Below, in pieces: positions 3,067 to 52,671 of a stretch of 64,000 nt of DNA. The notes under the pieces were generated by a model that was not told where the DNA came from, did not search any database, and saw only the letters and a list, made by a program, of their open reading frames with translations. This DNA is from an uncultured bacterium (GTDB taxonomy: Bacteria > Patescibacteriota > Minisyncoccia > Phycocordibacterales > UBA2100): assembly GCA_903824595.1 (NCBI GenBank), contig CAIJXH010000004.1, positions 40,697 to 104,696 on the forward strand, in the 5' to 3' direction. The position numbers were made by a program, and so were the translations under genes. Position 1 is the stretch's first letter. Each line of letters opens with the position of its first letter.

Positions 3067-3089
3067 CGTGTTTGTGGTATAATACAGGG

Positions 3090-6245: not shown

Positions 6246-6301
6246 CCTCACGCGCCCATACATTGATCTCGTCGCTTGAAAATGTTGTTCGCATATTCTT
6301 T

Positions 6302-6333
6302 TCTTTTGTTAATTGACTAAGGTTAACAAAAGA
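6302..6333. other. AT-rich perfect hairpin (TCTTTTGTTAA-10 nt-TTAACAAAAGA) between speB and tRNA-Ser. Possible terminator or structured spacer.
   Basis: 11-bp perfect inverted repeat read directly. No clean U-run follows, so terminator function is uncertain. Confidence 0.25.
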
Positions 6334-6372
6334 AAGCTGTGCCCCGTGTCCACTTTTTGGGGTACAGATCAC

Positions 6373-6460
6373 TGGCGGAGGGGGTGGGATTCGAACCCAC
6401 GGTGCCTTGCGACACACCTGTTTTCAAGACAGGAGCACTAGACCACTATGCGACCCCTCC
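6373..6460 (-). tRNA. tRNA-Ser (anticodon TGA) with long variable arm and encoded CCA.
   Basis: Reverse complement folds as acceptor GGAGGGG/CCCCTCC, anticodon stem CCTGT/ACAGG with loop CTTGAAA, long variable arm, T-arm GTGGGTTCGAATCCCAC, discriminator G, CCA. Confidence 0.8.
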
Positions 6461-6503
6461 TACGAGTCTTTTGTACCATACAACCACCCACCCCACCACT
6501 GCT

Positions 6504-8477: not shown

Positions 8478-8806
8478 CGCAAGCGCAATACCACCCCAGT
8501 GGAAATCCTAGGGCGTATCCCCTCACGACATGTTCAATGATCCCGATCGTTGACATCTGTCGTATCCCCTTGCCTAATTCAAACCCCCTTGACCCGCAGG
8601 TGCAGGGGGGGTAGGGTGAACAGGTTGGGAGCGTTTCTGCATCTCGGTACCGTGTGGTGTGCCTCCGTGACAGCGAGGCATAGCGACACAATTTCTGCTT
8701 TCCCCTACGCGCAACCACACAAAAAAGGCTTATCATCGTCGGCACACAACATCCTTCCACGAGCGTGGCATGCTCGCGTGCAAGGAACCATACAGTCGGG
8801 CACGTC

Positions 8807-9850
8807 ATGCGGCGAGCTTTTTTGCTTGTGTCGATACTACTCGTATGCGGATCCGTCGTCCCATCCACGACGCACGCTTCGGCACTTTCCGACATCCTCG
8901 ACTCACTGCAAAAGAACATCCTTCCCATGCAATCGAGCACCTCATCGGATGGTAATTTGCAGACCATATCCGTTTTGAAACCTGCTTCCAACATCGACCC
9001 CGCAGCGACGCGCAACACGAGCACCGTTACCATTGTGGATGATTCGGCATTGCTGCCCGACGAAGGACCTGCGGGCACAATGGCAAGCATTGACGGATCG
9101 AGAGGCGGCACCATCAGCACATACACCGTGCGCACGGGCGATACCCTGTCGAGCATTGCGGCGATGTTCAAAATCCCCGTCAACACGATCCTCTGGGCAA
9201 ACGATCTCTCGCGGTCGTCATCGTTGCGCGTGGGTGAAACACTCACGATTCTCCCCATTCCTGGAGTGCCGTATACCGTCAAGAAGGGCGACACCATTGC
9301 GCGCATTGCCACGCGATACGGAGGTGATCCTGCTGAAATCATGAGCTACAACGGGATCGACGAAACCACGCTCGCCGTCGGCACACAGATCATCATTCCA
9401 GATGGCGAAGCACCCGCGACACCACCCAAACAAAATACGAAAGCCACGCGAAGCAACAATGAGCCTGCACACAACGTGGGACCAGCGGGCACGTTGACAC
9501 AGATTGGCTACTACATTCGCCCGATCGTTGGCGGAGTGAAGACGCAAGGCATTCACGGCTACAACGCGGTCGACCTCGCCGCTCCTATCGGCACACCTAT
9601 CCTTGCTTCTGCCGAAGGCGATGTGATCGTCGCAAAAGAAGGCGGGTGGAACGGAGGCTACGGCAGCTACATCGTCATCCAGCACGACAACGGCAGCCAG
9701 ACGCTCTATGGACACGCATCGGGCGTCGTTGTAAACAGTGGGCAGCACGTGCGGCAAGGACAAGTGATCGGCTATGTAGGATCGACAGGCAAATCGACAG
9801 GTTCGCATGTTCACTTCGAGATTCGCAACGGGATTAGGAATCCGTTCTAG
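8807..9850 (+). CDS. Secreted LysM-domain M23 family metallopeptidase (peptidoglycan hydrolase).
   Basis: Signal peptide MRRAFLLVSILLVCGS. Two LysM repeats (YTVRTGDTLSSIAAMF / YTVKKGDTIARIATRY). M23 catalytic motifs HGYNAVDLAAPIGTPI and GSTGKSTGSHVHFEI. Confidence 0.8.
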   Translation: MRRAFLLVSILLVCGSVVPSTTHASALSDILDSLQKNILPMQSSTSSDGNLQTISVLKPASNIDPAATRNTSTVTIVDDSALLPDEGPAGTMASIDGSRGGTISTYTVRTGDTLSSIAAMFKIPVNTILWANDLSRSSSLRVGETLTILPIPGVPYTVKKGDTIARIATRYGGDPAEIMSYNGIDETTLAVGTQIIIPDGEAPATPPKQNTKATRSNNEPAHNVGPAGTLTQIGYYIRPIVGGVKTQGIHGYNAVDLAAPIGTPILASAEGDVIVAKEGGWNGGYGSYIVIQHDNGSQTLYGHASGVVVNSGQHVRQGQVIGYVGSTGKSTGSHVHFEIRNGIRNPF

Positions 9851-9954
9851 CGTTCATGCGCTAAAGTACTGATTTTGTTGCCCAAACATATCTCGCTTGC
9901 TATGGTTGTCGCGGAGCGTTCTTTTGCTCTTTGACACCGTATGGGAGAAACGCG

Positions 9955-11457
9955 ATGATCGGGTTTACAAAAGATCGCACTACCATCGCCGTTGTCGGCG
10001 CACAGTGGGGCGATGAGGGCAAAGGGAAAATTGCGGACATACTCGCGAGAGACGCGCACATCGTCGCGCGAGGCACTGGAGGCAGCAATGCGGGACACAC
10101 CATCATTCACGAAGGAACTGCACACGTACTCCACCAGTTGCCATGCGGAATTCTCTACCCAAACACGTTGAGTGTTATCGGGAGAGGTGCGGCGGTAAAT
10201 CCACTCGCGCTGACGCGCGAGATCAATGCCGCCACAGACGCGGGCATGTCGTGCCACGGATTACGTATCTCAAACCATGCGCGATTAGTGACACCGATCG
10301 AGATATTGATCGACAGAATCACTGAAGCAGAGGGCAGCGCGATAGGGACGACAGGTCGCGGCATCGGTCCGACCTATACAGCGCACGTGGAACGCCGCGG
10401 ACTGTTCGTCAATGACACGCTCAACAAGGAGGAGCTGAAAAAGAAACTGCAACATTCGGTAGAGGCAGTGATGCCCTTCTTGCGAGCATTTCATCCTGGA
10501 ACTACAAGACGTATCCTTGGCGCCGACGACATGGAGAAAGGCGCATTCTACAAAGACCCAGACTCTATATTCAACATCGACGCGATTATTGATGTATATC
10601 GTGAATTCGCGCGGCGCTTCAGAGAAAGAATCGTTAATACGGACAGACTCATACAGTCCAACGTGGGGAAACAGAAAATACTGCTCGAAGGATCGCAAGG
10701 CATATTGCTTTCGATCGAGCATGGCACGTATCCATTCGTCACCTCGTCTGACAGTACGCTGCCCGGGCTTGCAGAAGGGGTCGGCATTCAGAGCAGAGAC
10801 GTTGATCACACCTATGTGGTAGCGAAAGCGCCCTACATGACTCGCGTCGGAGACGGTCCATTCCCCACCGAACTCGGCGGAAAGACCTCGGCACAGTGGT
10901 GCAAAAACAACACCAAAGAGCGAGAAATCGAGGAGTATCCCGAGCCCGATATCAATTCAGACGAAATGTTCGAGCGCGGCGTCGCCATACGCCGACTTGG
11001 TAACGAATATGGCTCTACGACGAAAAGACTTCGACGCATCGGATGGCTCGATATCCCTCTGTTGCATCATGCGCTCACGTGCGGCGGTGGATTTCAGAGC
11101 GGTCGCGCCAGCATAATACTTACCAAGCTCGACATGGGCGACACCATGGATGATGTGCGGCTATGCATTGCCTATCACTACGCTGGCAAAAAAGGATACG
11201 CCATAGGCAGCTCGCGCCTCCTCCCGGGAAAACGGATGTGCGTCGCACCTATGGATCAATACGCCCTCGCCAATTCAACACCACTCTATCGCGAGTGTCG
11301 TGGATGGAAATGTTCGTTGCGTGGCATAACCTCTGCCAATGATCTACCGCGCGCCCTGCTTGAATACATCGCGGCAATACAAGAATACGCAGGCGATGAC
11401 GTGAAGATCGATGCTATCTCTGTCGGCCCACGAGGACACGAGACAATCGCCCTATAA
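9955..11457 (+). CDS. purA: Adenylosuccinate synthetase.
   Basis: P-loop GAQWGDEGKGKI, GSNAGHT, TTGRGIGP motifs. Longer than typical PurA (~500 aa), so likely carries insertions. Confidence 0.85.
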   Translation: MIGFTKDRTTIAVVGAQWGDEGKGKIADILARDAHIVARGTGGSNAGHTIIHEGTAHVLHQLPCGILYPNTLSVIGRGAAVNPLALTREINAATDAGMSCHGLRISNHARLVTPIEILIDRITEAEGSAIGTTGRGIGPTYTAHVERRGLFVNDTLNKEELKKKLQHSVEAVMPFLRAFHPGTTRRILGADDMEKGAFYKDPDSIFNIDAIIDVYREFARRFRERIVNTDRLIQSNVGKQKILLEGSQGILLSIEHGTYPFVTSSDSTLPGLAEGVGIQSRDVDHTYVVAKAPYMTRVGDGPFPTELGGKTSAQWCKNNTKEREIEEYPEPDINSDEMFERGVAIRRLGNEYGSTTKRLRRIGWLDIPLLHHALTCGGGFQSGRASIILTKLDMGDTMDDVRLCIAYHYAGKKGYAIGSSRLLPGKRMCVAPMDQYALANSTPLYRECRGWKCSLRGITSANDLPRALLEYIAAIQEYAGDDVKIDAISVGPRGHETIAL

Positions 11458-11470
11458 CCAGTACACAAAA

Positions 11471-11500
11471 GCGGAGGACACAAACCTCCGCTTTTTCTTT
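11471..11500 (+). terminator. Intrinsic terminator after purA.
   Basis: GCGGAGG-acacaaa-CCTCCGC stem followed by TTTTTCTTT. Confidence 0.6.
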
Positions 11501-11534
11501 ACCATTCCCTCGCCCGATACTGAAGTGCTTCGAG
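11501..11534. repeat. Direct repeat copy A (33/34 nt). Duplicated 3' end of comM (encodes ...LEALQYRAREW*) delimiting an inserted segment.
   Basis: Sequence acCattccctcgcccgatactgaagtgcttcgag is identical (1 mismatch) to 12771..12804, which is the genuine comM 3' end. Confidence 0.8.
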
Positions 11535-11555
11535 CTGCGCCAATTGCATAATATT

Positions 11556-12686
11556 CTATTGCACAACATCTTCTCGCAAGAAATCGTCTGGAGTTACCAC
11601 TCGTGTGATCGCCTCGGGATAATATTTCAGGAACGTCGCAAAATTGACACTACCAGAAGTCAGCTTGCATTCGTAGGCACGCAACACACGACCATCCATT
11701 CGTATAAAATCGATTTCCTTCTTATCGCGCGTGCGCCAAAAATACGTCTTCGGCGGAAATGACACGAGAGTATCTCGTTTCATAAGCTCTATAAAGAATA
11801 GTGACTCAAATAGAATGCCGCGCTCCACGTCGTTTGTGCCACTCGAAAATCCGCCCACGAGTGCATTGCGTACGCCGAGATCCAAGAAATATACTTTGTA
11901 GGATTTCTTAAGTTCGTTGGCATAATTGCGCGCAAATGAATACACGCGCTTAATAACGAAGGACTGCTCCAAAAGCCGAATATATTTTTCCACTGTGACT
12001 TGCGTGATTCCAAGCTCTTTCGAGAGATCGTTGGTAGAAACCGTGCTTCCAATACGCATTGCCAGATGCGTGAGCAAATCTTCGAACGCTTTCGGATTGC
12101 GAATCGCCTCAAACGTAAAGACGTCTTTATACAAATAGTTCGTCGCAATGTTCTTAATCTCCTCCTGTTTTTCAAGAAAGGTGGGAGCTGTTACGACCGC
12201 AGGATACGAACCAAACGCCATAAGATCATCGAAAATTTTCTGGGTGATCTCACAAGCACGACGAATCTCGAGAAGCGACAATGGATACAATAAGTATTCC
12301 GAGGCACGGCCAGTCAATGGTTCTTTCACCTTATTGGCAAGATCAAACGCAGAAGAACCAGTCGCAATGATTTTTATATCAGGATATGTGTCATAGAATA
12401 TCTTTAATATCTTGCCTATATTTGTAATAGTTTGTGCTTCATCAAAGACCACAATTTTTTTGTCAGCTATAAGCTGCAAGAGCTTCTCTGGTTTACCAAG
12501 CGCGAAATGACGTCGGACGTCTGCATGTTCGCAATTGAAATATCCGCCACGGTCTCCGTATGGAACGAGTAGTTTTTTTGCAAGTGTTGTCTTGCCCGAC
12601 TGTCGCGGTCCTAAAATGATCACAATACCCTTCCCTTGAAGACGTTCTGTAATAGAGTTTTCTATTTCACGTTTGAAAATATGCAT
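11556..12686 (-). CDS. AAA-family ATPase with C-terminal DUF4143-like domain (ATP-binding protein often found as single-gene insertions).
   Basis: Walker A GPRQSGKTTLAK, Walker B IVVFDEAQ, C-terminal region typical of the DUF4143 ATPases. Lies between the two comM 3'-end repeats. Confidence 0.75.
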   Translation of the reverse strand: MHIFKREIENSITERLQGKGIVIILGPRQSGKTTLAKKLLVPYGDRGGYFNCEHADVRRHFALGKPEKLLQLIADKKIVVFDEAQTITNIGKILKIFYDTYPDIKIIATGSSAFDLANKVKEPLTGRASEYLLYPLSLLEIRRACEITQKIFDDLMAFGSYPAVVTAPTFLEKQEEIKNIATNYLYKDVFTFEAIRNPKAFEDLLTHLAMRIGSTVSTNDLSKELGITQVTVEKYIRLLEQSFVIKRVYSFARNYANELKKSYKVYFLDLGVRNALVGGFSSGTNDVERGILFESLFFIELMKRDTLVSFPPKTYFWRTRDKKEIDFIRMDGRVLRAYECKLTSGSVNFATFLKYYPEAITRVVTPDDFLREDVVQ

Positions 12687-12721
12687 ATTTCAACAAAAAC
12701 AACAATTTATGACTATACTCA

Positions 12722-12750
12722 TATATTGCTCTATCATCTATTTTTGTCAA
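12722..12750 (-). promoter_or_regulatory. Putative sigma70-like promoter for the AAA ATPase gene (-35 TTGACA, 17-nt spacer, -10 AATATA).
   Basis: Read on the minus strand: cTTGACAaaaatagatgatagagcAATATAtg, ~35 nt upstream of the ATG. Confidence 0.25.
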
Positions 12751-12768
12751 GCACTGTACTGTGCGTAA

Positions 12769-14313
12769 TTACAATTCCCTCGCCCGATACTGAAGTGCTT
12801 CGAGCATGTGCGCGGGCTCGATGGTGTCGGACGCGGCGAGATCGGCGACAGTACGCGCGAGTTTGATGGTGCGATGATATCCGCGTGCCGAAAGCTTCAT
12901 GGTGCGCGCCGCCTGCTGGAGTGTTTCTTCTGCCTTCCGCGACAGATTGGCAAGAGATTCGATATGTTTTGCTCTCATGTCGGCGTTGGTGGAAATGCCG
13001 GGAGACGACGCAAAGCGCGCTCGCTGACGCTCGCGCGCGCCTGCAACAGCGGCGCGCGCCGCATGCGTCTCTCCTCCTTTGCCCTTTGCATCCGCTTTGA
13101 GCGACTCGGGTGGCATCTCGCTCACATGTACCCACATGTCTATGCGGTCGGCGACAGGTCCTGAAATCTTGCGGCGATATTTTTCGATCGCATGGGGCAT
13201 GCAGCGGCAACGTGGTGTATGGGCAAATCCGCACGGACACGGATTGAGAGCAGCAATCAACATGAAGCTCGCGGGAAATATCGCGGAGCCCTTGGCGCGT
13301 GAAATGGATACAACGCGATCTTCGAGCGGCTCGCGCAACGCGTTGACCACATCGCGATGAAATTCCGGGAACTCGTCGCAAAAAAGCACTCCTCGATGTG
13401 CGAGCGTCGCTTCGCCCGGACGAATCCCCGACGATCCGCCGCCGATGAGCGACGCATAGGACGACGTGTGATGCGGAGAGCGAAAAGGAGGACGAAAGAT
13501 CGGCGCGCCCGAGAGGTTGCCAGAAAGCGAATGAATAGTCGTCACCTCGATCATTTCATCCTCAACAAGATCGGGAAGAATAGATGCAGCGGCGCGCGCG
13601 AGCAACGTCTTCCCCGTACCGGGCGGTCCGTAGAGCGCAATGTTGTGTCCGCCCGCGGCTGCGATGATCATGCCGCGTTTAGCGCTCCCTTGACCGCGAA
13701 TGTCATCGAAGGCGGTGTCGTCGAGCACACCGCGCACGGATGATTGCTTTGGCGCGTACTCTTCGTGTTCGCCTCCGAGCAACGAGAGCAATTGCTTGAG
13801 TGAAGAAACGGGATGAATACGAATGGTGGAGATGAGCGATGCTTCTTCGTAGTTATCTTCGGGAATGTAGAGATCGGTGAATCCCGCCTCGCGCGCGGCA
13901 CTCGAGATCGAGAGCGCGCCAAGAATTGGGCGCACGGTGCCATCAAGCCCCAACTCTCCTGCAAAAAGCTTGCCCGACGGATCAAACGCAACCTGCTCCG
14001 ACGCGAGCAGAAAAGCCAGCGCGAGCGACACGTCAAACACCGCGCCTTCTTTTTTGAGTGCAGCCGGCGCGAGCGAGAGGACGATTTTTTTATTGCTTCG
14101 TTTGGGCGATTCTAAATCATCGGTGTTCTTTATCGCCGCCGCAATGCGGTCTTTCGCTTCCTCAACCGATTTGTCAGGCAATCCTACGATCGTGAAGGCG
14201 TGCAATCCTTTCACAATATCGCACTCAACCGACACGACCGCCGCCTTGGGAAGCATCGGCTGCGCGCCATACACCCGCGCAAATCCCGACTCTATTTTCT
14301 GCTTCGCGTTCAC
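12769..14313 (-). CDS. comM: Mg-chelatase-like AAA+ ATPase ComM/YifB (competence-associated).
   Basis: N-terminal Lon-like domain, Walker A GPPGTGKT, FCDEFPEF, Cys cluster CPCG...C, C-terminal helix ...LEALQYRAREL. Confidence 0.85.
   Translation of the reverse strand: MNAKQKIESGFARVYGAQPMLPKAAVVSVECDIVKGLHAFTIVGLPDKSVEEAKDRIAAAIKNTDDLESPKRSNKKIVLSLAPAALKKEGAVFDVSLALAFLLASEQVAFDPSGKLFAGELGLDGTVRPILGALSISSAAREAGFTDLYIPEDNYEEASLISTIRIHPVSSLKQLLSLLGGEHEEYAPKQSSVRGVLDDTAFDDIRGQGSAKRGMIIAAAGGHNIALYGPPGTGKTLLARAAASILPDLVEDEMIEVTTIHSLSGNLSGAPIFRPPFRSPHHTSSYASLIGGGSSGIRPGEATLAHRGVLFCDEFPEFHRDVVNALREPLEDRVVSISRAKGSAIFPASFMLIAALNPCPCGFAHTPRCRCMPHAIEKYRRKISGPVADRIDMWVHVSEMPPESLKADAKGKGGETHAARAAVAGARERQRARFASSPGISTNADMRAKHIESLANLSRKAEETLQQAARTMKLSARGYHRTIKLARTVADLAASDTIEPAHMLEALQYRAREL
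12771..12804. repeat. Direct repeat copy B: the genuine 3' end of comM.
   Basis: Matches 11501..11534. Confidence 0.8.
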
Positions 14314-36134: not shown

Positions 36135-38522
36135 TCAGAATCTTGTCATCTCCCCCCAATTTTTCCCCACTGCAATCTCGGCGACGATGGGCACGCCGCC
36201 GAGCAGGGCGGGTGCGACGACGGATTCCATGATGCCGCGCAGCTCGCGTGCGATTGGTTCGGCTTCATTCTCCGCGACTTCGTAGACGAGTTCGTCGTGC
36301 ACTTGGAGAAGGAGTTTCGCTTTGTCGCGCCAGTCATTTTTTTCTATCAACGCATCGGTCGCTACCATCGCAAGCTTGATGATGTCGGCTTGCGTGCCTT
36401 GGATCGGCGCGTTGGTCGCCATACGTTCGGCTTGCGCACGCATGGTGGGCAACGCAGATGTGAGCGCAGGAAAATAGCGACGACGACCGAAAAGTGTCTC
36501 GGTGTAGCCGAGGCGCGCCGCGTCTTGTTTCGTCTTCTCGATGTATTTCTTCACACCAGAAAACCGCTCAAAATACTGCGCAAGAAAATCCGCCGCCTCC
36601 GCGCGGGTCACTTCCGCTCCCAAATTCGCGCGGAGCGCGTTGACACCCATGCCGTAGAGGATACCGAAGTTGATCACCTTGGCACGACGGCGCATTTCGT
36701 AGTCAACCTTCTCGTGTGGCACACCAAACACGCCAGATGCGACCGCCGTGTGCACGTCGCCACCCTCCTTGAACGTGTGAATCAGCGTCTCGTCGCCCGA
36801 AAGCCCCGCCGCGATGCGAAGCTCGATTTGCGAGTAATCAATCGCCGCGAACAGCTTGCCCTCGGGCGCGACAAACGCGCGGCGGATTTTTTTGCCGTGC
36901 TCGGTTTTCACGGGAATGTTCTGAAGATTTGGATTCTGGCTCGCCATGCGCCCTGTCGTCGTCCCCGCCTGCAAAAATTCCGCGTGCAACCTGCCATCGC
37001 TTGCCACGAGCCCGGGGATTTTTTCGATGTAGGTGGAGAGCAGTTTCTGCAGCTCGCGATACGCGAGCACATCGGCGATGATCGGATGCTGATCGCTTAT
37101 CTTGGCTAATTCTTCTTCGCGCGTGGTACGCGCGCCGGTTGCCGTTTTCTTTTGTTTTTCCGGCACGATTTTGAGCTCGTCGTACAGCACAACACCGAGC
37201 TGCTTGGGAGAATTGATGTTGAAATCATGCCCTGCATGCGCGACGATCTTCCCAACCGCATTACCAAGCTCTTTACCATACTCTTTTGCGAGCGTCGCAA
37301 GATAGGCAGTGTCGATCGCTACGCCGGTTGCGTTCATCCGCTCCACTACCGAAATAAGAGGTTTCTCGATGTCCTCGTACACTGCCGCGAGTCGCCCTGT
37401 CTTGTGTAGTTCCGCAAAGAGATTCTTGCGCGCCGTGGCAAAATCGTTCGCATGCCCATCGCGCAAAATATCGTCGAGCACCGGACTGGTCGTATCGGAA
37501 TGCAAAAGCCAAAGCGCGATCGCCGTTTCCTTCTGCTCGCGCGCATCAATCTCCTCCCTCATTACTGACTGCGGCTCCTGCGGCACGCCGGATGAGCGTT
37601 CCACGGCGGCGAACACGCGGCTCTTGAGCGAACCGAATTCCAGCTCTTCGCACAAAGCGATGATCGTGTCGACATGCTCACTCATACGCCACGAATGATC
37701 GGGCAGTGAGAATGAAATTGGCGCATCGGTGCGTATGGTAGCGAGATGTTTGGAAAGTTTCGCTGCCTCCTCGCCTTCGCGGATTTTATCCGCCATCTTT
37801 CCTTTCACACCCGACTCTTCGAGCGCCTTTGGATCGGCGTTGATCGCGCGGTACATATCTTCGATCGATCCGAATATCCCAATGAGCTCTTCGGCGGTCT
37901 TCTCACCTACGCCCTTGATGCCGGGGATATTGTCGGAAGGATCGCCGCGAAGCGCCTTGTAATCCACTACATGCTCCGGTCCAAAACCGTATCGTTCGCG
38001 CACACGATCAGCATCATAAAGAATCGTATCCGCCAAACCTTTGCGAAGCGTGTACACTCGCGCACGATCCGACACCAATTGCAGTGCATCGAGATCGCCC
38101 GTCGCAATGACTGATTCAATGTCGGCGCGATCTTTGAGCGCATGCACGATCGTCCCGATGCAGTCGTCTGCCTCAAACCCCGGTGCGGAGTACACAGGAA
38201 TGCCAAACGCCGTGAAGATCTCGGGCGCTTTCTGAAGCTGCGCGATGAGCTCTGGCTCGGCTTTCGCGCGCGTACCTTTGTAGTCTTCAAACACCTCGTG
38301 CCGCATCGTCTTCCCCGGCAGATCGCGACACGCCACCACATAGTCGGGCTTGAGATCGTCGATGATTTTCAGGAGCATGGAGACGAGTCCGTAGAGCGCA
38401 CCCGTCGGCTCGCCTTTAGATGTAGAAAAATCCGGCACCGCATGGTACGCGCGATGCAGAATCGCGTGCGAGTCGAGGATGACGAGGCGTTTGGTGTCAG
38501 TGCGTTTGTTAGTTGATTTCAT
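36135..38522 (-). CDS. polA: DNA polymerase I (5'-3' exonuclease + polymerase domains).
   Basis: N-terminal 5'-nuclease motifs (LVILDSHAILHRAYHA, GIPGIKGVGEKTA). C-terminal Pol A motifs (DYSQIELR, RRRAKVINFGILYG, QVHDELV). Confidence 0.9.
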   Translation of the reverse strand: MKSTNKRTDTKRLVILDSHAILHRAYHAVPDFSTSKGEPTGALYGLVSMLLKIIDDLKPDYVVACRDLPGKTMRHEVFEDYKGTRAKAEPELIAQLQKAPEIFTAFGIPVYSAPGFEADDCIGTIVHALKDRADIESVIATGDLDALQLVSDRARVYTLRKGLADTILYDADRVRERYGFGPEHVVDYKALRGDPSDNIPGIKGVGEKTAEELIGIFGSIEDMYRAINADPKALEESGVKGKMADKIREGEEAAKLSKHLATIRTDAPISFSLPDHSWRMSEHVDTIIALCEELEFGSLKSRVFAAVERSSGVPQEPQSVMREEIDAREQKETAIALWLLHSDTTSPVLDDILRDGHANDFATARKNLFAELHKTGRLAAVYEDIEKPLISVVERMNATGVAIDTAYLATLAKEYGKELGNAVGKIVAHAGHDFNINSPKQLGVVLYDELKIVPEKQKKTATGARTTREEELAKISDQHPIIADVLAYRELQKLLSTYIEKIPGLVASDGRLHAEFLQAGTTTGRMASQNPNLQNIPVKTEHGKKIRRAFVAPEGKLFAAIDYSQIELRIAAGLSGDETLIHTFKEGGDVHTAVASGVFGVPHEKVDYEMRRRAKVINFGILYGMGVNALRANLGAEVTRAEAADFLAQYFERFSGVKKYIEKTKQDAARLGYTETLFGRRRYFPALTSALPTMRAQAERMATNAPIQGTQADIIKLAMVATDALIEKNDWRDKAKLLLQVHDELVYEVAENEAEPIARELRGIMESVVAPALLGGVPIVAEIAVGKNWGEMTRF

Positions 38523-39012
38523 ACGAGAACGATCGCACAAACTCATCGAGCGTGTCGAGTGTCACGTACAGTGTACCAGGCGGCAATGCTTCACTCACCC
38601 TCTCCGGCCATTCGATGAGAATGAGATTGCCCGGATCGGCGAGTAATTCTGCCCAACCGAGCTTTTTCAATTCATGCGCGCCTTCGAGGCGATACGCGTC
38701 GACGTGCACGAGACGATCAAAAGATTGCCCTGCCGCGCGAGATTCCGCGCCGAGGACATTGTTCGAGCGAAGCGAGTCCCGCAGGCGCGGAATCTCGCGC
38801 GGCAGGGCATAGACTTTTTGTATGACAAACGTGGGACTCACGACCACCTCTTCCACCCCGAGCGCTCGCGCCACATGCTGCGTGAAGGTGGTCTTCCCCG
38901 CACCCAAATCGCCCGAGAGCGCGACCACCGTCGCCCGCTCCCCGCGCGCAAGTCGCGCGAGCAATGCTTCTGCTTCGGAAGCAAGATCGTCGTGATGGAC
39001 TCGTTTCTGCAT
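38509..39012 (-). CDS. tsaE: tRNA threonylcarbamoyladenosine biosynthesis protein TsaE.
   Basis: VVALSGDLGAGKTTF...SPTFVIQKVY...HVDAYRLE...LIEW. Start at MQKRVHH; the track ORF extends further as an unlikely N-terminal tail. Confidence 0.75.
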   Translation of the reverse strand: MQKRVHHDDLASEAEALLARLARGERATVVALSGDLGAGKTTFTQHVARALGVEEVVVSPTFVIQKVYALPREIPRLRDSLRSNNVLGAESRAAGQSFDRLVHVDAYRLEGAHELKKLGWAELLADPGNLILIEWPERVSEALPPGTLYVTLDTLDEFVRSFSYEIN

Positions 39013-40257: not shown

Positions 40258-40276
40258 CCGCAGGTTTAACCTGCGG
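40258..40276. repeat. REP-like palindrome copy 1 (CCGCAGGTTTAACCTGCGG).
   Basis: Exact 19-nt hairpin-forming repeat, 13 nt upstream of the HuH transposase start. Confidence 0.8.
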
Positions 40277-40289
40277 AATTGGTGTTAGA

Positions 40290-40985
40290 ATGGATAGCAT
40301 GTCTACCCGACCACCCATGGCGATTGGCGAATGGTACCACTGCTACACTCGCGGGGTCGACAAGCGAAAAGTATTTGAATCGCAGGAAGATTATGATCGT
40401 TTTCTGGTGCATCTTTACGTCGCCAATGGAACGCGAAATATTCGCGTATCCGATATGCGCGACACGCGACTTAAGAGGGTTTTGGAGGATGAATCGCTCG
40501 ATCGAGGTCATCCGATTGTTGAAATTGGAGCGTACTCGCTCATGCCAACCCATGTTCATTTTCTGTTGCGGGAAATCAGAGACGGCGGTATTGCGCTTTT
40601 CATGCAAAAGACCTTCACCGGGTATACGATGTATTTCAATAACAAGAACGAGCGCACTGGGGCGCTTTTTTCCGGCACGTTCAAATCGAAACACGTAAAC
40701 GAAGATCGGTATCTGAAACAAGTCATTCCCTACATACTCCTCAACCCCGTGGAATTGTTCTATCCCGACTGGAAGAACGGCATCGGCGATATTGATTCCG
40801 TGGAGAAAAAATTGCTCGCGTACCCCTACTCAAGTTTGCAAGAGTTTCAGAGTGTTAGCATCGAACGCCCGCATAAAAAAATCGTGAACGGCTCCTTTGA
40901 AATGTATTACGAGCAACTCCCCACACTCTCACAAATGCTCAGTGACGCGCAAGAGTATTATCGGGAACGCCGTCCGCAGGTTTAA
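40290..40985 (+). mobile_element. IS200/IS605-family HuH (Y1) transposase of the REP-associated (RAYT, TnpA_REP) type.
   Basis: EWYHCYTRG...YSLMPTHVHFLL (HuH motif) and C-terminal Tyr-containing helix. 231 aa. Flanked by identical REP palindromes; its stop codon TAA is the loop of REP copy 2. Confidence 0.75.
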
Positions 40986-40993
40986 CCTGCGGA
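40975..40993. repeat. REP-like palindrome copy 2.
   Basis: Exact repeat; encodes the transposase C-terminus RPQV* (stop lies in the hairpin loop). Confidence 0.8.
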
Positions 40994-41071: not shown

Positions 41072-41674
41072 TCAATCAGAGAGAGGAGCTAGTTTCCTCA
41101 ACACATCGAGGTCGTCTTCAATATCCCATCCGTGTTCACGCAGCCCTTCCGCGATTCGGATGACCAACTCGTGATCCATCAATTCAGACAACCCCGAGAA
41201 CGACAGAATGATCCACTCGGATATTCGACCCTCACCATGACGCGCGCACACGGTAATTGCACCGGCATATTTTTCAGTCGCCCGATCCCGCGATTGACAG
41301 GATGCTCGATGTTGCTCATTGAAAAACCCTCCATATAGGCGCAGAGCTTTTTCCGTCGCAAATCGGATATATTTTTCCATTTTGCCCCGGTTTACTCCAT
41401 CAAAACAACATGCGAACAAGGGCTCTGGGGTAGTGATCGAACCTCGATTGCATGGCACTGGGGTCACATGGAATACCTGCAAACAACCACCCTTACCTTG
41501 TTCTGTCTCGTTTCCTGCGACCAATTTAACCAGAGCTTGCTCGGCAACGTCTCGTACAAGACGAGACCGTTCTTCAGTGAGGCGCATATCCATCTCCTCC
41601 AAATCACAAAATGCCCAACCTCCACAGCTGGAGATTTCTCCAGCAACAATATCGCATAACGGCACATGGGTCAA
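41072..41674 (-). CDS. Hypothetical protein located between REP copies 2 and 3.
   Basis: 200-aa ORF, no recognisable motif. Confidence 0.35.
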   Translation of the reverse strand: MTHVPLCDIVAGEISSCGGWAFCDLEEMDMRLTEERSRLVRDVAEQALVKLVAGNETEQGKGGCLQVFHVTPVPCNRGSITTPEPLFACCFDGVNRGKMEKYIRFATEKALRLYGGFFNEQHRASCQSRDRATEKYAGAITVCARHGEGRISEWIILSFSGLSELMDHELVIRIAEGLREHGWDIEDDLDVLRKLAPLSD

Positions 41675-41687
41675 AACTACGAATCCT

Positions 41688-41706
41688 TTTCCCGCAGGTT
41701 TAACCT
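41688..41706. repeat. REP-like palindrome copy 3.
   Basis: Exact repeat. Confidence 0.8.
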
Positions 41707-41721
41707 GCGGATTTTGTTCAA

Positions 41722-41841
41722 CTTACTACCACTCAATCTCCTTCTGCCCGTGCTCTTTCAGGTACGCATTCGCCTTTGAAAAGGGTTTGGATCCGAAGAA
41801 ACCGGAGTGGGCGGAAAAGGGCGACGGGTGCGGCGATTCGA
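41722..41841 (-). pseudogene. Diverged duplicate of the ung 3' end (fragment encoding ...[39 protein letters not shown]).
   Basis: ~65 nt almost identical (ggtttggatccgaagaaaccggagtgggcggaaaagggcgacgg(g/a)tgcggcgattcgatgacga) to 43362..43425 inside ung, then ~55 nt of diverged but alignable sequence including a stop codon. Confidence 0.65.
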
Positions 41842-41855
41842 TGACGAAAGGAGTG

Positions 41856-43196
41856 TCAGTAGATCGGGACACAATTCGAGTCAAATTGAGATAAGTCGAC
41901 AGTCTGATTATTCCAGATCTTCAAGTCACCAGATCTCGGAAGACAGCAGTTACGACGCATAGTATTCGATGGATTGCTCTCCACGCGTGCCCGCTCTCGA
42001 CAACTTACTTGCCACTGGATGGAACCGACAAAATGGGCTAAGCAGTAATGCTCACCAGCTTGCCAATCGGACCAGGTAGCGTTTGCAAGATTATTTTCTT
42101 TAAATATACAGAGTGTTGGATCATTATTCTGAGTTGCTTTAAATGTTCGATTGCGAGAGACACATCTTATATAGTACCTCTGTGCATTCTTCATATTCAC
42201 CTCCATATCCTCGTTATCCATGTTATCAGCATCAATAATCGATACCGCAGGGTTGTTTTGAGGTACATCCTGTACTTGATCCCACCCATCTTTCATTATT
42301 ATCGTCGCCGATGGGATAACTTCGAGACCCGTCACGCCAGGATAAAGCGCTTCACAATTTGACTGCCCCGATTGTGCAGCAGCCTGTGATTTTGAATCCT
42401 TACAATTGAGATTATATTGATTGTCTCGCAGCGTACAGTCTTTTAGATTTTGTTCATACTGCGGATCCGCCTGATCAAGACACTGGGTCAACTGCCTGCG
42501 CCCTTCCTGAACCACCACGCCCTCCGTATCTCCACCCGAAAGATAGCATAGTGATGGCAGATGTATCTTCGTAGCAATGGCAAATATGAGATCTCGTCCC
42601 CCCATTACAGGTGCGAAAGGCCCCACGATCACTACGATCATGAGTGCGGTCAGGACGGACGCGTATTGTGTGCGTCGTATCGGATACTGCGCGCCACGTA
42701 TCACTCTCGATACTAGTATCGAAAGACCCGCAAAAAGCGCTATCAGCAAGCAAGCGGCCATGTTTCTAAAAACAAATACTACTTCACCGGCAGCAGCCAT
42801 TGCTGCAATGAGAGGAAATGGAAGTCTAGTGCCGCTGCCAAGACGTACATCTACATCTGCGAGGAGGAGGAATAAACATGAAGACAATACCAGCACCAAT
42901 AGAGTTAAGAAAACTGAAACCAATCCCCCAACTGAATAAACAAGTGCATCCGATACCGGACGGGAAGTATCAGGAGATATAGAGCGTGCGACGAGGAATG
43001 GTCCGCAGAGCGCCAATATGACTAAACCAAGATAATAAACTTCCTCCCCTATTACCCGATATAAGACAAGGTGTGCGATTGTATACACTGGCAAGAAAAC
43101 AAAGATAAAAAAGAAAGTTAGCGCGCTGAAAAAAAGTATGTGTCTATATTTTTTTTTCATCAGCACAAATATAGCACGGGTGCATGCACGAGACAA
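41856..43196 (-). CDS. Polytopic membrane protein with Cys-rich C-terminal extracellular domain (hypothetical). Cargo gene between the ung 3' fragment and ung.
   Basis: 446-aa ORF, ~6 N-terminal TM helices, C-terminal domain with ~10 Cys. Confidence 0.45.
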
Positions 43197-43252
43197 ACAT
43201 GACTCCCCTGTCGCCGCGCGACGATGAATCCCGCTTTCGTCCGCAGGTCGTC

Positions 43253-43271
43253 CGCAGGTTTAACCTGCGGT
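43253..43271. repeat. REP-like palindrome copy 4 (preceded by a partial tandem half-copy gtccgcaggtc).
   Basis: Exact repeat, 30 nt downstream of the ung stop. Confidence 0.8.
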
Positions 43272-43300
43272 TTTTGATCCGATACTTGAATGTGCAAAAG

Positions 43301-43966
43301 CTACCACTCTATGGGCGCTTTCCCGTGTTTGCCGAGGTCGGTATTTGCTCTGGAGAACGGTTTGGATCCGAAGAAACCGGAGTGGGCGGAAAAGGGCGAC
43401 GGATGCGGCGATTCGATGACGAGATGGCGCGCGCGGTCGATGTGCGCGCCTTTGTGCCTCGCGTAGTTGCCCCAGAGGATGAAGACGATATGTTCGCGCT
43501 CTTCGGCAAGTTTTTGTATCGCCGCGTCGGTGAATTGTTCCCAGCCTTTGCCTTGGTGCGAGCAGGCTACGCCGGCTCGCACCGTGAGCGTCGCATTCAG
43601 AAGCAGCACACCCTGCTTCGCCCAGCGCGACAGATCGGTATCGCGACTCACCGGATGCCCGAGGTCGGATGCTAGTTCCTTGAATATATTTTGAAGCGAT
43701 GGTGGCGTCGCTACACCCGAACGCACCGCAAAACACAGCCCGTTCGCCTGTCCTTCTCCATGATACGGATCTTGCCCGAGAATCACCACTTTCACCTCAT
43801 CAAACGGACACTCATCAAATGCACGGAACACCTGCTTGGGCGGCGGAAACACTCGCGCACTCTTGTATTCCTCACGCACGAAACTCGCAAGTGATTGAAA
43901 GTACGACTGTTCGAACTCTGCCGCCAGTCTCTCTCTCCATCCTCCACTTATTTTTACTTCTACCAT
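43301..43966 (-). CDS. ung: Uracil-DNA glycosylase, family 1.
   Basis: GQDPYH (water-activating loop), [11 protein letters not shown] (Leu-intercalation/His motif). Start at [10 protein letters not shown]. Confidence 0.85.
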
Positions 43967-49111: not shown

Positions 49112-49166
49112 GCCGTATATACTATCATTGTTGCGCTCGCGCTACCACCCCCATGTGTATTACGAA

Positions 49167-49286
49167 GTGCCTATCCCCTCACGACATGTTCGACGAGGTC
49201 TTTGCAGCGCGACGGCGCGAAACAGAGGGATTTTTCAGCAGAAAAATCCCGACCTCGGAGAATCGTGTCGTGAGGGGATAGGCACC
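49167..49286. mobile_element. MITE-like palindromic element copy 1 (120 bp; 21-bp terminal inverted repeats GTGCCTATCCCCTCACGACA; flanked by TATTACGAa / TATTACGAc).
   Basis: Near-perfect long hairpin with nested stems. A second near-identical copy at 52489..52608 has a different flanking duplication. Confidence 0.7.
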
Positions 49287-49307
49287 TATTACGACACGCG
49301 TATCCCA

Positions 49308-51272
49308 TTACGACGTGGGAGCAGTATCAGCGCGCGCCACTTTTGCCGCTGACGCAATGTTCCCACTGTCGGGAACAGCAGAAAGACGTGAGTGTGGAGG
49401 TTGTATGCGCGAAGAAGAAATCGGAGCGGAAGAGGTCTCTACAGCTGCTGCGTTCGTTTCTTGCGTCGCTTCCATTTCTTGTTTTGCTTTTTTGATTGCG
49501 AGAATCTGCGACGGATCGGAGGTTATGATCTGATCTTCGGTGTACGATGCGACCACCTTGATCGCGACATGCTTCAATCCCGCAAAGAAAATCCCCTCTC
49601 CCACATCACTTTCGAGCAGAAGGTACTTCTCTTCATCGGAAAGCTTGAAGGTGCTCTGTACAAGATCCACCGAAGTCGGCGACTGACGCAACAGCATCTG
49701 GATTGAGGAGTTGGTAATCATCGGGACGCCGTACGGAGAATTGAGGAAGTCGGAGACGTCTTGCGTGATCGTGGAGACGCCGAGGAAATATTTGCGTCCG
49801 CGCTTGATGATGCCGAAAAGGAATGAGGCGGTATCTTGGCTTCTCATCATCCACCATGCCTCGTCGATGATGAGGAGGCGTTTGCGTAGCTCTTTTCTCA
49901 CCGTGTTCCAAATATGATGCGTGATGATGTACATGGCGACCGGCTTGAGATCGTCTTCCATGTCGCGCACCGAGAAGACGACGAGCTTTTTGTTCATGTC
50001 GACATTGGTCGGACGATTCATAAAGCCAGACCACGTGCCTTTTGTATATTTCGAGAGGCGCGCAACGAGCGAGTCACTCCCCTCCATACCCGACAGCACG
50101 AGTTCGAAATCGGAGAGAAGAGGCGGTTCGACTGCGGCAAAATTAGAATCCGGGGTTATGTCTTTGAGCGCGTAGGTCTCGGTGATGGCTTTATCGATCA
50201 CGGCATCTTCTTCTGGAGTGAGTCCGCCGAGCATGATGCGGAAAAGTCCCACAAGCGTGATAATGTTGTTGCGCAACACATCGGACGGAGCTTCGTCTTC
50301 GCGCGGGATCGGAAGATCGAAAGGATTGATATGGTGTTCGGACGAAAGCGAAATATTGAAGTAACGTCCGCCCACCGTCTCGGCGAGATACTCATACTCA
50401 CGCTCTGGGTCGATGACGATCACCTCCACGTCAAACATGAGCGAGCGCAAAATCTCGAGCTTGGTCATGTATGACTTCCCTGCGCCCGATTTCGCAAAGG
50501 TGACGGAGTTGTAGTTTTCGAGCGAGAAACGATCGAACAGGATGAGTGAAGAATTGTGACGATTGATGCCGTAGAGAATGCCGCGATCCGAGGTGAGGTC
50601 AAAAGATATGAAAGGAAAGATCGACGACAATGGCGCTGAATTTAGTTTTGTATGCACGTCAAGCTCATCAGTACCAAGCGGCAACGTGGAACGAAATCCC
50701 TGCTCCTGCTGAAACAGCGCCGGACGTATATACACAAGCCGCGACTCCAAAACCGATCGCACATCACTTTCTATTTTGTCGAGCTCGTCTCGCGTTGCCG
50801 CGTAAATCGTGATGTACAAACCAACATCAAAGATACGTTCCTGTGCTTGCTGTAAACTATCGCGAAGCTGTTCAATATCCGCATACGCCGTGTCGAGCAT
50901 CGGATCACGCACCATGCCCGATTCTTCACGCGTGGAAATCTGACTTTGCACCTCCGCCACCTTTTTCTGGAATTTGCGCAACATTTCATTGGTATCCATG
51001 GGGTGAATGAACACTGAAATATCTATCACCTTGTCCATGTTGATGATCGGCGCAAACCATCCTGTCGTGAGAAAACGCGGATACGAGATGACAAAAAATG
51101 TACGAGCTATTTTTTCGCCAAGATCAAGCTCGCGCGAATGTATCTTGAGCGCATGCGGCGCAATAACATCTTGTAAATCCAAAATACCCGTGCGATAAAT
51201 CTCCTCGGGCAATATAGGCAATATCTTCGCCGTATCCTGCTTCTTTGTGACAAATAAATCAAGAAATGACAT
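49308..51272 (-). CDS. VirB4/TrbE/CagE-like type IV secretion ATPase (ATPase domain; N-terminal domain encoded by the separate upstream ORF).
   Basis: Walker A FAKSGAGKSYMTK, Walker B VIVIDPEREYEY..., C-terminal motifs of the VirB4 family. Confidence 0.7.
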   Translation of the reverse strand: MSFLDLFVTKKQDTAKILPILPEEIYRTGILDLQDVIAPHALKIHSRELDLGEKIARTFFVISYPRFLTTGWFAPIINMDKVIDISVFIHPMDTNEMLRKFQKKVAEVQSQISTREESGMVRDPMLDTAYADIEQLRDSLQQAQERIFDVGLYITIYAATRDELDKIESDVRSVLESRLVYIRPALFQQEQGFRSTLPLGTDELDVHTKLNSAPLSSIFPFISFDLTSDRGILYGINRHNSSLILFDRFSLENYNSVTFAKSGAGKSYMTKLEILRSLMFDVEVIVIDPEREYEYLAETVGGRYFNISLSSEHHINPFDLPIPREDEAPSDVLRNNIITLVGLFRIMLGGLTPEEDAVIDKAITETYALKDITPDSNFAAVEPPLLSDFELVLSGMEGSDSLVARLSKYTKGTWSGFMNRPTNVDMNKKLVVFSVRDMEDDLKPVAMYIITHHIWNTVRKELRKRLLIIDEAWWMMRSQDTASFLFGIIKRGRKYFLGVSTITQDVSDFLNSPYGVPMITNSSIQMLLRQSPTSVDLVQSTFKLSDEEKYLLLESDVGEGIFFAGLKHVAIKVVASYTEDQIITSDPSQILAIKKAKQEMEATQETNAAAVETSSAPISSSRIQPPHSRLSAVPDSGNIASAAKVARADTAPTS

Positions 51273-51946: not shown

Positions 51947-52435
51947 TTATACACGCATCGTCCGCGATGCTGGCAATGGCACGCCATCCATGCCGCGCTC
52001 CTCGTCTCGCGCAATACCCCCCGCGACTCGCTCCTTGATATCGAGTGACCACGCCAAATCACGAAGCTTGCTTTCAGACAGTTTGGGCACATACGTTTCC
52101 GTCGTAACGATCCCCGCTTTTTTCTGCTCCCCCACGCCATCTTTCCACTTCATGCGACGCTGATTGCTCCAGAGGTAGAATTTTGTTCGCATAAGGTACC
52201 GCAAACCATTTTCGAGCGCGTCGATAAACGGGCGATCGTTGTATGTGATAAACGCAAGCGCAAGCGCGAAAGCTGCGAGTATAATCATGCACGGGATCGC
52301 GATCAAAGACGGGAGCAACCTCCACACCAGGTACGACGCCCCCGCCCCTCCCACCACAAACACAAACTGCTTGAACGTAAGAGGACCAAAAATCTTGTCC
52401 TCGACTTCAATAAACTGCGGAACCTGAAACTGCAT
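51947..52435 (-). CDS. VirB3/PrgI-like small membrane protein (putative).
   Basis: MQFQVPQFIEVEDKIFGPLTFKQFVFVVGGAGASYLVW: N-terminal motif plus two TM helices, as in VirB3-like proteins preceding VirB4. Confidence 0.4.
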   Translation of the reverse strand: MQFQVPQFIEVEDKIFGPLTFKQFVFVVGGAGASYLVWRLLPSLIAIPCMIILAAFALALAFITYNDRPFIDALENGLRYLMRTKFYLWSNQRRMKWKDGVGEQKKAGIVTTETYVPKLSESKLRDLAWSLDIKERVAGGIARDEERGMDGVPLPASRTMRV

Positions 52436-52488
52436 ATTGCCAGTATACCAAGCGTATCGACGTGCTCATGACCTGTTTGTGCGTATCA

Positions 52489-52608
52489 GTGCCTATACCC
52501 TCACGACATGTTCGACGAGGTCTTTGCAGCGCGACGGCGCGAAACAGAGGGATTTTTCAGCAGAAAAATCCCGACCTCGGAGAATCGTGTCGTGAGGGTA
52601 TAGGCACC
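52489..52608. mobile_element. MITE-like palindromic element copy 2 (flanked by a perfect 9-bp duplication TGCGTATCA). An adjacent partial third copy lies at ~52623..52666.
   Basis: Identical to copy 1 except one compensatory pair of substitutions in the terminal stem (C->A on the left arm, G->T on the right arm). Confidence 0.7.
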
Positions 52609-52671
52609 TGCGTATCACCATCACACGACGCGTTCGACGAGGTCTTTGCAGTGCGACGACGCACAGGTTAT

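Follow-up and report, generated by a model that had tools for sequence, protein, structure and literature searches.

How does a housekeeping gene come to possess its 3′ end twice, once in place and once again on the far side of an unrelated gene? The question is raised by ung, which encodes a family-1 uracil-DNA glycosylase, in the 64,000-nucleotide stretch of DNA analysed here (the window, to which all positions refer unless another locus is named), from an uncultured bacterium of the candidate phyla radiation (CPR). Downstream of ung lies a single co-oriented gene for an orphan membrane protein, hereafter the cargo, and just beyond it a second, 5′-truncated copy of the ung end. As set out below, this arrangement very probably represents an acquired cassette that displaced the native end of ung, and the same architecture is present at comM in the window and at several genes of related CPR contigs.

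The two ends of ung

The components of the locus, from ung to the downstream copy of its end, are the following:

43301..43966, minus strand: ung, family-1 uracil-DNA glycosylase, 221 aa from ATG, frame intact (Pfam UDG, E = 3.7e-18)
43356..43422, minus strand: in-gene copy of the repeat core, encoding 22 residues (65/67 identical to 41781-41847; 54/67 to the relative L081)
43301..43355, minus strand: in-gene 3′ tail, 17 residues, putatively imported with the cargo (29/55 identical to the L081 tail)
43168..43196, minus strand: promoter-like site 5′ of the cargo ATG, TTGTCT-17-TATATT, with TG (consensus scan)
41856..43160, minus strand: cargo gene, 434 aa from ATG (P0121), or 446 aa from a TTG at 43196
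41848..41855, no strand: junction of 8 nt from the cargo stop codon to the vestigial core, read from the sequence
41781..41847, minus strand: vestigial copy of the core (BLASTN, repeat search, L081 alignment)
41726..41780, minus strand: vestigial tail, 17 residues, the native ung 3′ end, now displaced (47/55 positions shared with the L081 tail)

When positions 43200-43600 were compared with the window by BLASTN, a single non-self match was obtained, at 41692-41847 (E = 1e-29), and the repeat search delimited an ungapped repeat of 122 nt (41726-41847 and 43301-43422), 80% identical and with a start-to-start spacing of 1575 nt. The duplication had first been aligned by eye, in a reading of the sequence alone (the sequence-only reading), and that alignment was not spurious. 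Its description as a 3′-end copy with a near-identical core stands, but the extent had been placed at about 120 bp with a core of 65 nt, whereas the core measures 67 nt, the repeat runs over 41726-41847, and about 156-171 nt are alignable. The repeat consists of two parts, namely the core, with 65 of 67 positions identical, which codes for the conserved HPSP loop region, and a tail of 55 nt, with 33 of 55 positions identical and the same residue at 9 of 17. Over the 41 codons compared, 25 are identical, 7 differ synonymously and 9 non-synonymously, and in each copy the stop codon follows directly after ...IEW. In the gapped BLASTN alignment the similarity continues beyond the stops as far as a repetitive extragenic palindrome (REP), and at the opposite side it breaks off abruptly at 41847/43422. 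The insert amounts to 1,575 bp, with a single cargo open reading frame (ORF).

The same insertion structure was found, at 99.97-100% identity, in contigs of four other assemblies of the same population, three of which span both repeat copies, and it is therefore not an assembly artefact of one contig. All four of these contigs with the cargo also have the insertion, and no empty allele was found among them. An exact look-up of the window's ung protein returned nothing on record, and the named sources of its homologues at 74-80% identity are Candidatus Kaiserbacteria or Parcubacteria, both of the CPR.

Which end is native

The closest syntenic relative among the fetched loci, L081, has a ung that is 80% identical at the protein level, keeps the order type IV secretion system (T4SS)-clpP-ung, and lacks the cargo. 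Its alignment with the in-gene ung of the window ends at 43353, that is, at the end of the core, and the last 121 nt of the L081 ung match 41847..41727 at 83.5%, which bears out the earlier description of the downstream fragment as a vestigial ung 3′ end. For the tail, the downstream fragment agrees with L081 at 47 of 55 positions and the in-gene copy at 29 of 55, a value below that of all 55-nt windows 5′ of the core (minimum 0.55, mean 0.75). The vestigial tail can also be aligned with the ung tails of L008, L001, L166 and others, and the protein sequence it encodes is near the family consensus, with 15 of 17 residues as in the tail of P0003. The in-gene tail gave no DNA alignment with any of the 176 fetched loci; its best protein tail match is 13/17, and it carries Asp at a position where 92 of 94 homologues have Tyr. 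Because L081 and other relatives match the tail of the fragment and not that of the gene, the downstream fragment is the displaced native end, and the tail in which ung now terminates would have come with the cargo.

The orthologue-like copy is thus the truncated, downstream one, in agreement with the earlier proposal of an insertion and not of a tandem paralogue decaying in place. That reading had also suggested looking for ung without the insertion in relatives; a plain ung is present in L081 and in L181-L184, and in L183, a more distant relative, fusA follows ung after 83 nt, an empty ung-fusA slot.

The cargo gene

The GC content and the GC content at third codon positions (GC3) of the cargo gene are 45.4% and 42%, as compared with 56% and 61% for ung and 56% and 66% for polA, and its composition is foreign. 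In both events of the window, that at ung and that at comM described below, the GC content of the cargo is lower than that of its host gene by 11-15 points. The polytopic, Cys-rich character attributed to the protein in the sequence-only reading is retained, with about six hydrophobic segments within residues 5-193 and, after these, a Cys-rich domain (of the 15 Cys, 12 fall within the C-terminal half), but the length of 446 aa is not, as public gene calls start at the ATG at 43160 and give 434 aa. No Pfam match was obtained for the protein. A search of 5.8e9 proteins returned only the protein itself, and a search of 1.84e9 representatives returned one remote relative, P0242, with 33% identity. 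Transcription of the cargo probably starts at a promoter of its own and also reaches it by read-through from ung. The promoter-like site upstream of it is no more than a pattern match, and such sites are not more numerous than expected from shuffled sequence.

A second event at comM

The arrangement at comM, which had been described as the same as that at ung, indeed has this architecture, a 37-nt repeat (36/37 identical) around a gene for an AAA_14 + DUF4143 protein:

12769..14313, minus strand: comM, Mg-chelatase-like AAA+ protein (Pfam Mg_chelatase, E = 4.9e-79), whose last 37 nt, 12769-12805, are the in-gene repeat
11556..12686, minus strand: cargo of the second event, AAA_14 + DUF4143 ATPase (Pfam), with its own TTGACA promoter-like site and a palindromic motif in the 5′ untranslated region (UTR)
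11499..11535, minus strand: vestigial comM 3′ end, 36/37 identical, stop codon included
11470-11493: bidirectional terminator hairpin, right after the vestigial comM end

The insert is 1,270 bp long and contains one cargo ORF, with a GC content of 43.4% against 58% for comM. The stop codon of this ORF lies 20 nt from the vestigial repeat, and over the events this interval is only 8-20 nt. The AAA_14-DUF4143 genes of the window, L170 and L173 have in common, in the region before the ATG (12687-12768 in the window), a conserved 5′ UTR of about 45 nt that contains, just 5′ of this codon, the palindrome TATGAC..GTCATA, which is probably an autoregulatory operator for the helix-turn-helix of the protein. 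Besides ung and comM, no further duplications of gene 3′ ends were found in the window, either in the nucleotide repeat search or by tblastn with C-terminal peptides. The competence-related genes noted are comM in the window and ComEC in the relative L182.

The same architecture in related CPR contigs

The earlier suggestion of a wider family of such events is supported by further cases in related CPR contigs, at ung, rpsG, fusA and a tyrosine-recombinase gene. The idea that DNA-metabolism genes are targeted does not hold in general, since rpsG and fusA are also affected. Genome and metagenome collections supplied 160 loci centred on ung, and of these only L008 and L092 have a second ung 3′ end; their ung genes are 65-68% identical to that of the window. 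Downstream of ung, L092 has a hicA toxin gene (identified by Pfam), an ORF placed where its hicB partner would be expected, and then an 85-nt ung fragment, and L008 has a 34-codon fragment, a gene for a 311-aa protein, and a frameshifted ung fragment of about 114 codons. This last and oldest ung fragment of L008 (2084-2424) carries frameshifts and no longer has the catalytic His of the HPSP motif (ESGPPSPLSA), and it shows that such fragments decay as pseudogenes.

Two contigs, L166 and L170, were found via the cargo. L166 (12 kb; 2836-11143) presents four or five events at the adjacent genes rpsG, ung and fusA: rpsG is followed by hicBA and rpsG fragments, ung by AAA_14 and a ung fragment, and fusA by phd/parE, fusA fragment 1, Fic and fusA fragment 2. 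In L170 (1717-8986), the 3′ side of a tyrosine-recombinase (Xer-like) gene is occupied by GT2 and AAA_14 genes, after which comes a fragment of the recombinase gene's own 3′ end, 97% identical to it. Three increasingly diverged fragments of the recombinase gene lie at 5935-5828, 3066-2850 and 1851-1717, with GT2, AAA_14, TrmB, Fic and a Y1_Tnp remnant between them, and a fragment of the AAA_14 3′ end is located at 4506-4640.

Different genomes thus have homologous AAA_14 cargo (77-78% aa identity) at different genes, namely comM, ung and that for the recombinase. The AAA_14 cargo homologues are 77-80% identical, and many are on contigs no longer than 1.2-2.5 kb, an indication of assembly breaks and of strain-variable or repeated contexts. 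This cargo is not always associated with a gene-end duplication, as none was found flanking the AAA_14 genes in the contexts L173-L180. A screen for C-terminal duplications over the 2.0 Mb of fetched loci gave clear fragment-type matches essentially only in these CPR contigs, but since the cargo had led to L166 and L170, the result does not represent an unbiased rate. In a direct-repeat screen of 165 loci, the candidates L007, L098, L116, L103, L045 and L152 were rejected as terminators, paralogues or low-complexity sequence.

In the three well-preserved ung events (window 43301-43355, L092 10600-10660, L166 5150-5230) the in-gene end is altered at a conserved residue. The substitutions in the putatively imported ends are Tyr to Asp in the window (Tyr in 92/94 homologues) and Gly to Asp in L092 (Gly in 90/94), and in L166 Gly to Ser in the FFGSKPF motif, this last one seen by eye and without a homologue count. 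The conserved residue is retained in the displaced fragments of the window and L092, and the L166 fragment is frameshifted there. These alterations may be a cost of the process, or may reflect relaxed selection on cassette-borne tails.

The Kaiserbacteria-like relatives (L181-L184, L166) have ung in the str operon region, in the order rpsL-rpsG-(variable)-ung-(variable)-fusA-(variable)-tuf, with each slot filled by a different accessory gene per genome; the window has its ung instead 5′ of rpsL, beside clpP.

Junctions and recombinases

The repeats of the different ung events start at different codons: 182 in the window, 188 and 108 or earlier in L008, and about 197 in L092 and L166. Over all events the repeat length ranges from 37 to more than 340 nt, with 73-167 nt in L092 and L166. 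The cassette ends have no motif in common, and the AAA_14 cassettes share only the 5′ UTR palindrome; nor was a common motif seen among the cores of the different targets, which were compared by eye, without a formal motif search. In L166, the in-gene end of fusA and fragment 1 are identical over about 30 codons and then differ at 21 of 26 (19 synonymous, 2 non-synonymous), fragment 1 being a mosaic of the in-gene core and the tail of fragment 2. As these differences are mostly synonymous, the tails have evolved as working gene ends in different lineages. The sharp switches in identity mark points of recombination within the repeat.

No integrase or other recombinase was found in or beside any of the about 10 cassettes examined, which extends the earlier observation, confirmed here, that neither cassette of the window contains one. 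In the window itself, a comparison of 41 ORFs with Pfam detected no recombinase other than the REP-associated tyrosine transposase (RAYT) described below, and tblastn with an Xer-like protein gave E-values of 0.17 or worse. The cassettes were also compared with integron cassettes, for which no attC-like or palindromic end motif and no IntI were seen (no formal attC model was run), and with diversity-generating retroelements, for which no reverse transcriptase was present among the annotated ORFs, the differences affecting all bases and the targets being housekeeping genes.

REP palindromes and a transposase gene are found close to the insert:

43252..43270, no strand: REP palindrome CCGCAGGTTTAACCTGCGG inside the insert, exact, with a half copy before it at ~43241-43251
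41692..41710, no strand: REP palindrome after the native tail, outside the insert, exact CCGCAGGTTTAACCTGCGG
40290..40985, plus strand: RAYT-like Y1 (IS200-like) transposase gene (Pfam Y1_Tnp, E = 5.2e-5), a neighbour and not part of the cassette

The Pfam score for Y1_Tnp is barely over the cut-off (23.8 vs 23). The 64 kb of the window contain four REP copies, all within 40.2-43.3 kb: two, at 40258-40276 and 40974-40992, flank the RAYT gene, and one follows each ung end, these two at homologous positions after each tail. The comM cassette has no REP, and the REP consensus of the window has no match in any fetched locus; the half palindrome AACCTGCGG occurs 5′ of the AAA_14 gene in L173.

A proposed homology-anchored insertion and its alternatives

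A recombinase-free, homology-anchored insertion is in our view the best reading of these events, and we hold to it with moderate confidence. Homologous or illegitimate recombination is favoured because the boundaries vary, no end motif is shared, no integrase was found and the breakpoints look mosaic. Further points in its favour are the competence-related genes noted above and the precedent of restriction-modification genes inserted with target duplications, discussed below. At ung, a horizontally acquired piece of 1,575 bp, comprising the foreign tail, a REP, the promoter-like site and the orphan membrane-protein gene, would have recombined into the 3′ part of the gene. The left junction would correspond to a homologous exchange within ung, by which ung came to end in the imported tail, and the right junction would lie 67 nt further 5′ in ung, leaving the last 122 nt of the host (core, native tail, REP) as a 5′-truncated fragment; the host core would have been duplicated onto both sides of the insert during joining. 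Two routes can be envisaged, one in which a small circle with the gene 3′ end and the cargo integrates Campbell-style, and another in which taken-up DNA joins by one-sided, homology-facilitated illegitimate recombination. Both would be independent of a recombinase, anchored by homology, and would make use of the host RecA. Later, the cassette could spread among relatives by double crossover, for which the gene body would supply one arm and the vestigial fragment the other. The cassette could also loop out through the direct repeats, keeping one repeat (the tail) as homing arm, and the junction of the excised circle would then read cargo end, CACTCCTT, core, imported tail.

Several observations weigh against this reading. 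L081 lacks the cargo and has a single ung 3′ end, but its downstream DNA is not conserved, so that no two-sided alignment is obtained; a strict same-species empty site was not found, and the protein collection holds no other ung above 80% identity. The imported tail matches no sampled ung allele in DNA, and no donor was found among the 176 loci. A Campbell integration of a diverged donor predicts divergence over the whole repeat, whereas the core is near-identical and the tail diverged. The near-identical core needs an extra step, which could be a duplication of the core at staggered junctions, repeated cycles of excision and integration, or gene conversion. Furthermore, the 37-nt repeat of comM is short for RecA-mediated exchange, and no circular or excised form was observed. 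The ung repeats of L092 and L166 begin at the same TTCTTC codons, a possible hint of a preferred site: across the ung events the start codons vary, which speaks against a fixed att core, and the two of five that coincide are weak evidence the other way.

It seems unlikely that the cassettes are the remnants of integrase islands at the 3′ ends of ung, comM, rpsG and fusA, each with a replacement end in its attP and now reduced to one cargo or mobilised in trans, in the manner of cis-mobilizable elements (CIMEs). An intact gene with an element-borne end, followed by cargo and a displaced native end, is the product known from the 3′-end integrases of ICE, IME and CIME elements, and the in-gene ung tail is foreign; the stacked fragments of L166 fusA, L170 and L008 resemble tandem accretion at an att site, and the ung repeats of L092 and L166 start at the same codons. 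However, the about 10 cassettes have no integrase in or beside them and none was detected in the 64-kb window, and at least five target genes would demand as many specificities. The repeat lengths and boundaries vary even for ung, homologous AAA_14 cargo is present at three different targets, the target cores show no common motif by eye, and the breakpoints behave like those of homologous-recombination mosaics. The differing boundaries, the lack of an end motif and the mosaic breakpoints likewise disfavour the trans-mobilisation by a dedicated site-specific recombinase that the sequence-only reading had put forward. It is very improbable that ung, or only its 3′ portion, was duplicated in tandem at this locus and then decayed, the cargo having arrived separately between the copies. 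The frameshifted fragment of about 114 codons in L008, with its mutated catalytic motif, does have the look of a decaying partial paralogue, but in the window it is the truncated copy that resembles orthologues, and the functional gene that has the aberrant tail, the reverse of decay in place. Drift does not account for a fall in identity from 97% to 60% over 122 nt, no trace of further 5′ ung sequence exists, the fusA tails of L166 differ almost only synonymously, and the compositionally foreign cargo fills the interval to within 8 nt.

The nearby HuH/RAYT transposase had been named as the candidate mobiliser, with REPs placed at both borders of the insert. The proximity is real, as all four REPs are within 40.2-43.3 kb, two of them adjoining the ung ends, and the RAYT gene is 0.7 kb from the vestigial fragment, but the REPs are not at the insert borders: one is inside the insert, after the imported tail, and the other outside, after the native tail. 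If the Y1 transposase (40290-40985) had moved a REP-bounded unit holding the cargo, this REP-to-REP unit would make the vestigial fragment foreign, and yet the fragment matches orthologues. Transposition by the single-strand HUH enzymes of the IS200/IS605 type is not known to duplicate a target of 67-122 nt. Because neither the comM cassette nor the other fetched loci have a REP match, the RAYT is unlikely to be the mobiliser, and taking all these points together we consider its involvement exceedingly improbable. An assembly or binning artefact, for instance a chimeric join of strain variants, could be imagined for a sequence derived from a metagenome-assembled genome, with a 67-nt repeat inside which one Logan contig breaks, but we give it practically no credence: the structure is 99.97-100% identical in four other assemblies and samples, obtained with different assemblers, three contigs span both copies, and analogous structures exist in unrelated datasets.

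If the homology-anchored insertion is extended to the other events, a possible, though doubtful, generalisation is that CPR bacteria of the Kaiserbacteria-like kind gain accessory genes by a recombinase-free, homology-guided cassette cycle, in which a housekeeping 3′ end acts as the RecA-dependent homing arm after uptake and the end of the host gene is replaced. The displaced end would stay behind as a direct repeat for loop-out or renewed transfer. Were this the case, foreign tails with damaging substitutions (Tyr to Asp, Gly to Asp) would be fossils of past hosts and a hidden cost of the process. The AAA_14-DUF4143 cargo might act as a nuclease that provokes insertion, which is speculation; DUF4143 is catalogued as a PD-(D/E)XK family, with no function assigned (PMC3424549).

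Other features of the window and of related loci

A further gene lies beyond the REP that follows the native ung tail:

41072..41674, minus strand: ORF of 200 aa and unknown function, 3′ of the original ung end (no Pfam match; GC3 46%)

This ORF is probably accessory, judging by its low GC3 (46%). A relationship to the AAA_14 cargo was considered on account of a 36-nt DNA match and rejected, the protein comparison not being significant. Among the other neighbours of the locus, 36135..38546 is polA and 38509..39000 is tsaE.

A third long direct repeat, at 49166/52488, was rejected as a gene-end duplication, as it is an intergenic palindromic element. This element of 122 nt is present at 49166-49287 and 52488-52609, in copies that are 98% identical and have terminal inverted repeats of about 21 nt, with partial copies at 52624-52662 and 8510-8540. 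The two full copies bracket T4SS-like genes, namely a VirB4/TraG-like gene (49308..51272), a 214-aa ORF and PrgI (51947..52435). Its computed fold is a long hairpin (-48 kcal/mol, z = -11.7), Rfam offers no match, and the element may be either a repeat resembling miniature inverted-repeat transposable elements or a structured RNA. The Rfam scan of the window detected three tRNAs and nothing else.

An AbiEii toxin gene (type IV toxin-antitoxin system) is located at 3206-3976 of the window, with a small ORF before it, between a saccharopine-dehydrogenase-like gene and a decarboxylase gene. The latter matches Pfam via its C-terminal sheet domain only, and the genes probably form a polyamine operon. 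No duplication flanking the AbiEii gene was found in the window. The slot after the dehydrogenase is occupied by other cargo in L173 and L177 (an Asp-protease-like gene, hicB). In L092, a gene for a 342-aa protein 5′ of dnaB lies between intergenic 49-nt direct repeats (2387-2435 and 3729-3776; 82% identical), and it may represent the same type of insertion at a site other than a gene 3′ end.

Significance and comparison with known systems

CPR bacteria have tiny genomes with few recognisable mobile elements, and their strain-specific acquisition of genes is poorly understood. The footprint described here, in which an intact conserved gene is followed by cargo and by a 5′-truncated duplicate of its own 3′ end, lends itself to automated searches; it is a sign of recent gene gain and shows which DNA was imported. 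It points to host recombination and DNA uptake as the route, and not to dedicated recombinases. It also carries a warning for annotation, since a housekeeping gene such as ung may have a chimeric end, and the short fragments downstream of it are scars and not genes. Our literature searches yielded nothing relevant on ung as an integration site or on integrative elements of CPR.

Integrases that act at the 3′ ends of protein genes bring an element-borne 3′ end that keeps the host gene intact, and the native end is displaced beyond the cargo. CIMEs, such as those at fda in Streptococcus thermophilus, are integrase-less derivatives in which direct repeats flank the unit. The cassettes described here resemble them in the intact gene, the displaced native end, the direct repeats and the absence of a recombinase in cis, and differ from them in that no integrase was found, there is no fixed att core, the targets are many and only one or two genes are carried. 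Integron cassettes are likewise compact, mostly co-oriented and of one or two genes, but no attC-like ends and no IntI were found in the present case.

Insertion-duplication with a fragment of a gene 3′ end produces an intact gene, heterologous DNA and a 5′-truncated copy, and requires one homologous anchor and RecA but no mobile-element enzyme. Plain insertion-duplication differs from what is seen here, where the combination of an identical core and a diverged tail needs an added step. We know of no description of such products as a recurrent natural route of gene gain in CPR. The minimal mobile elements of Neisseria are alternative single-gene cassettes between conserved genes, which move by transformation and homologous recombination without a recombinase of their own. 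They are unlike the present cassettes in using two different flanking genes as arms, with no duplication of a gene end. Background on insertion-duplication of the Campbell type and on homology-facilitated illegitimate recombination in natural transformation is given in PMC3240628 and PMC3784515, and the Neisseria elements are mentioned in PMC3787668.

Among known systems we lastly compared insertion with long target duplication (Nobusato et al. 2000, as cited in a passage of PMC2654758), in which restriction-modification genes without mobility genes are flanked by direct repeats of 30-420 bp, the target being single in relatives (PMC2853133). Some of the repeats overlap gene 3′ ends, and the species are mostly naturally competent (PMC2853133). 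The mechanism is not established; one hypothesis put forward is that such units insert, amplify and are released in a virus-like cycle (PMC2853133; Furuta, Abe and Kobayashi 2010). The events analysed here are similar in that repeats of more than 30 bp flank the inserts (122 nt at ung, 37 nt at comM), the inserts are below 20 kb and without integrase or transposase, and the repeats are variable in length and some of them lie over a gene 3′ end; in both, the cargo consists of selfish or addictive genes. On the other hand, the cargo is not a restriction-modification system but an orphan membrane protein, AAA_14-DUF4143, hicAB, phd/parE or Fic, the host belongs to the CPR, and several conserved genes of one small region are affected, sometimes repeatedly. 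Our findings would thus extend insertion with long target duplication beyond restriction-modification systems. They differ from it, moreover, in that the gene-proximal repeat contains a foreign allele of the gene 3′ end in its distal part, and this constitutes evidence, missing in earlier work, that the repeat moves between genomes together with the cargo.

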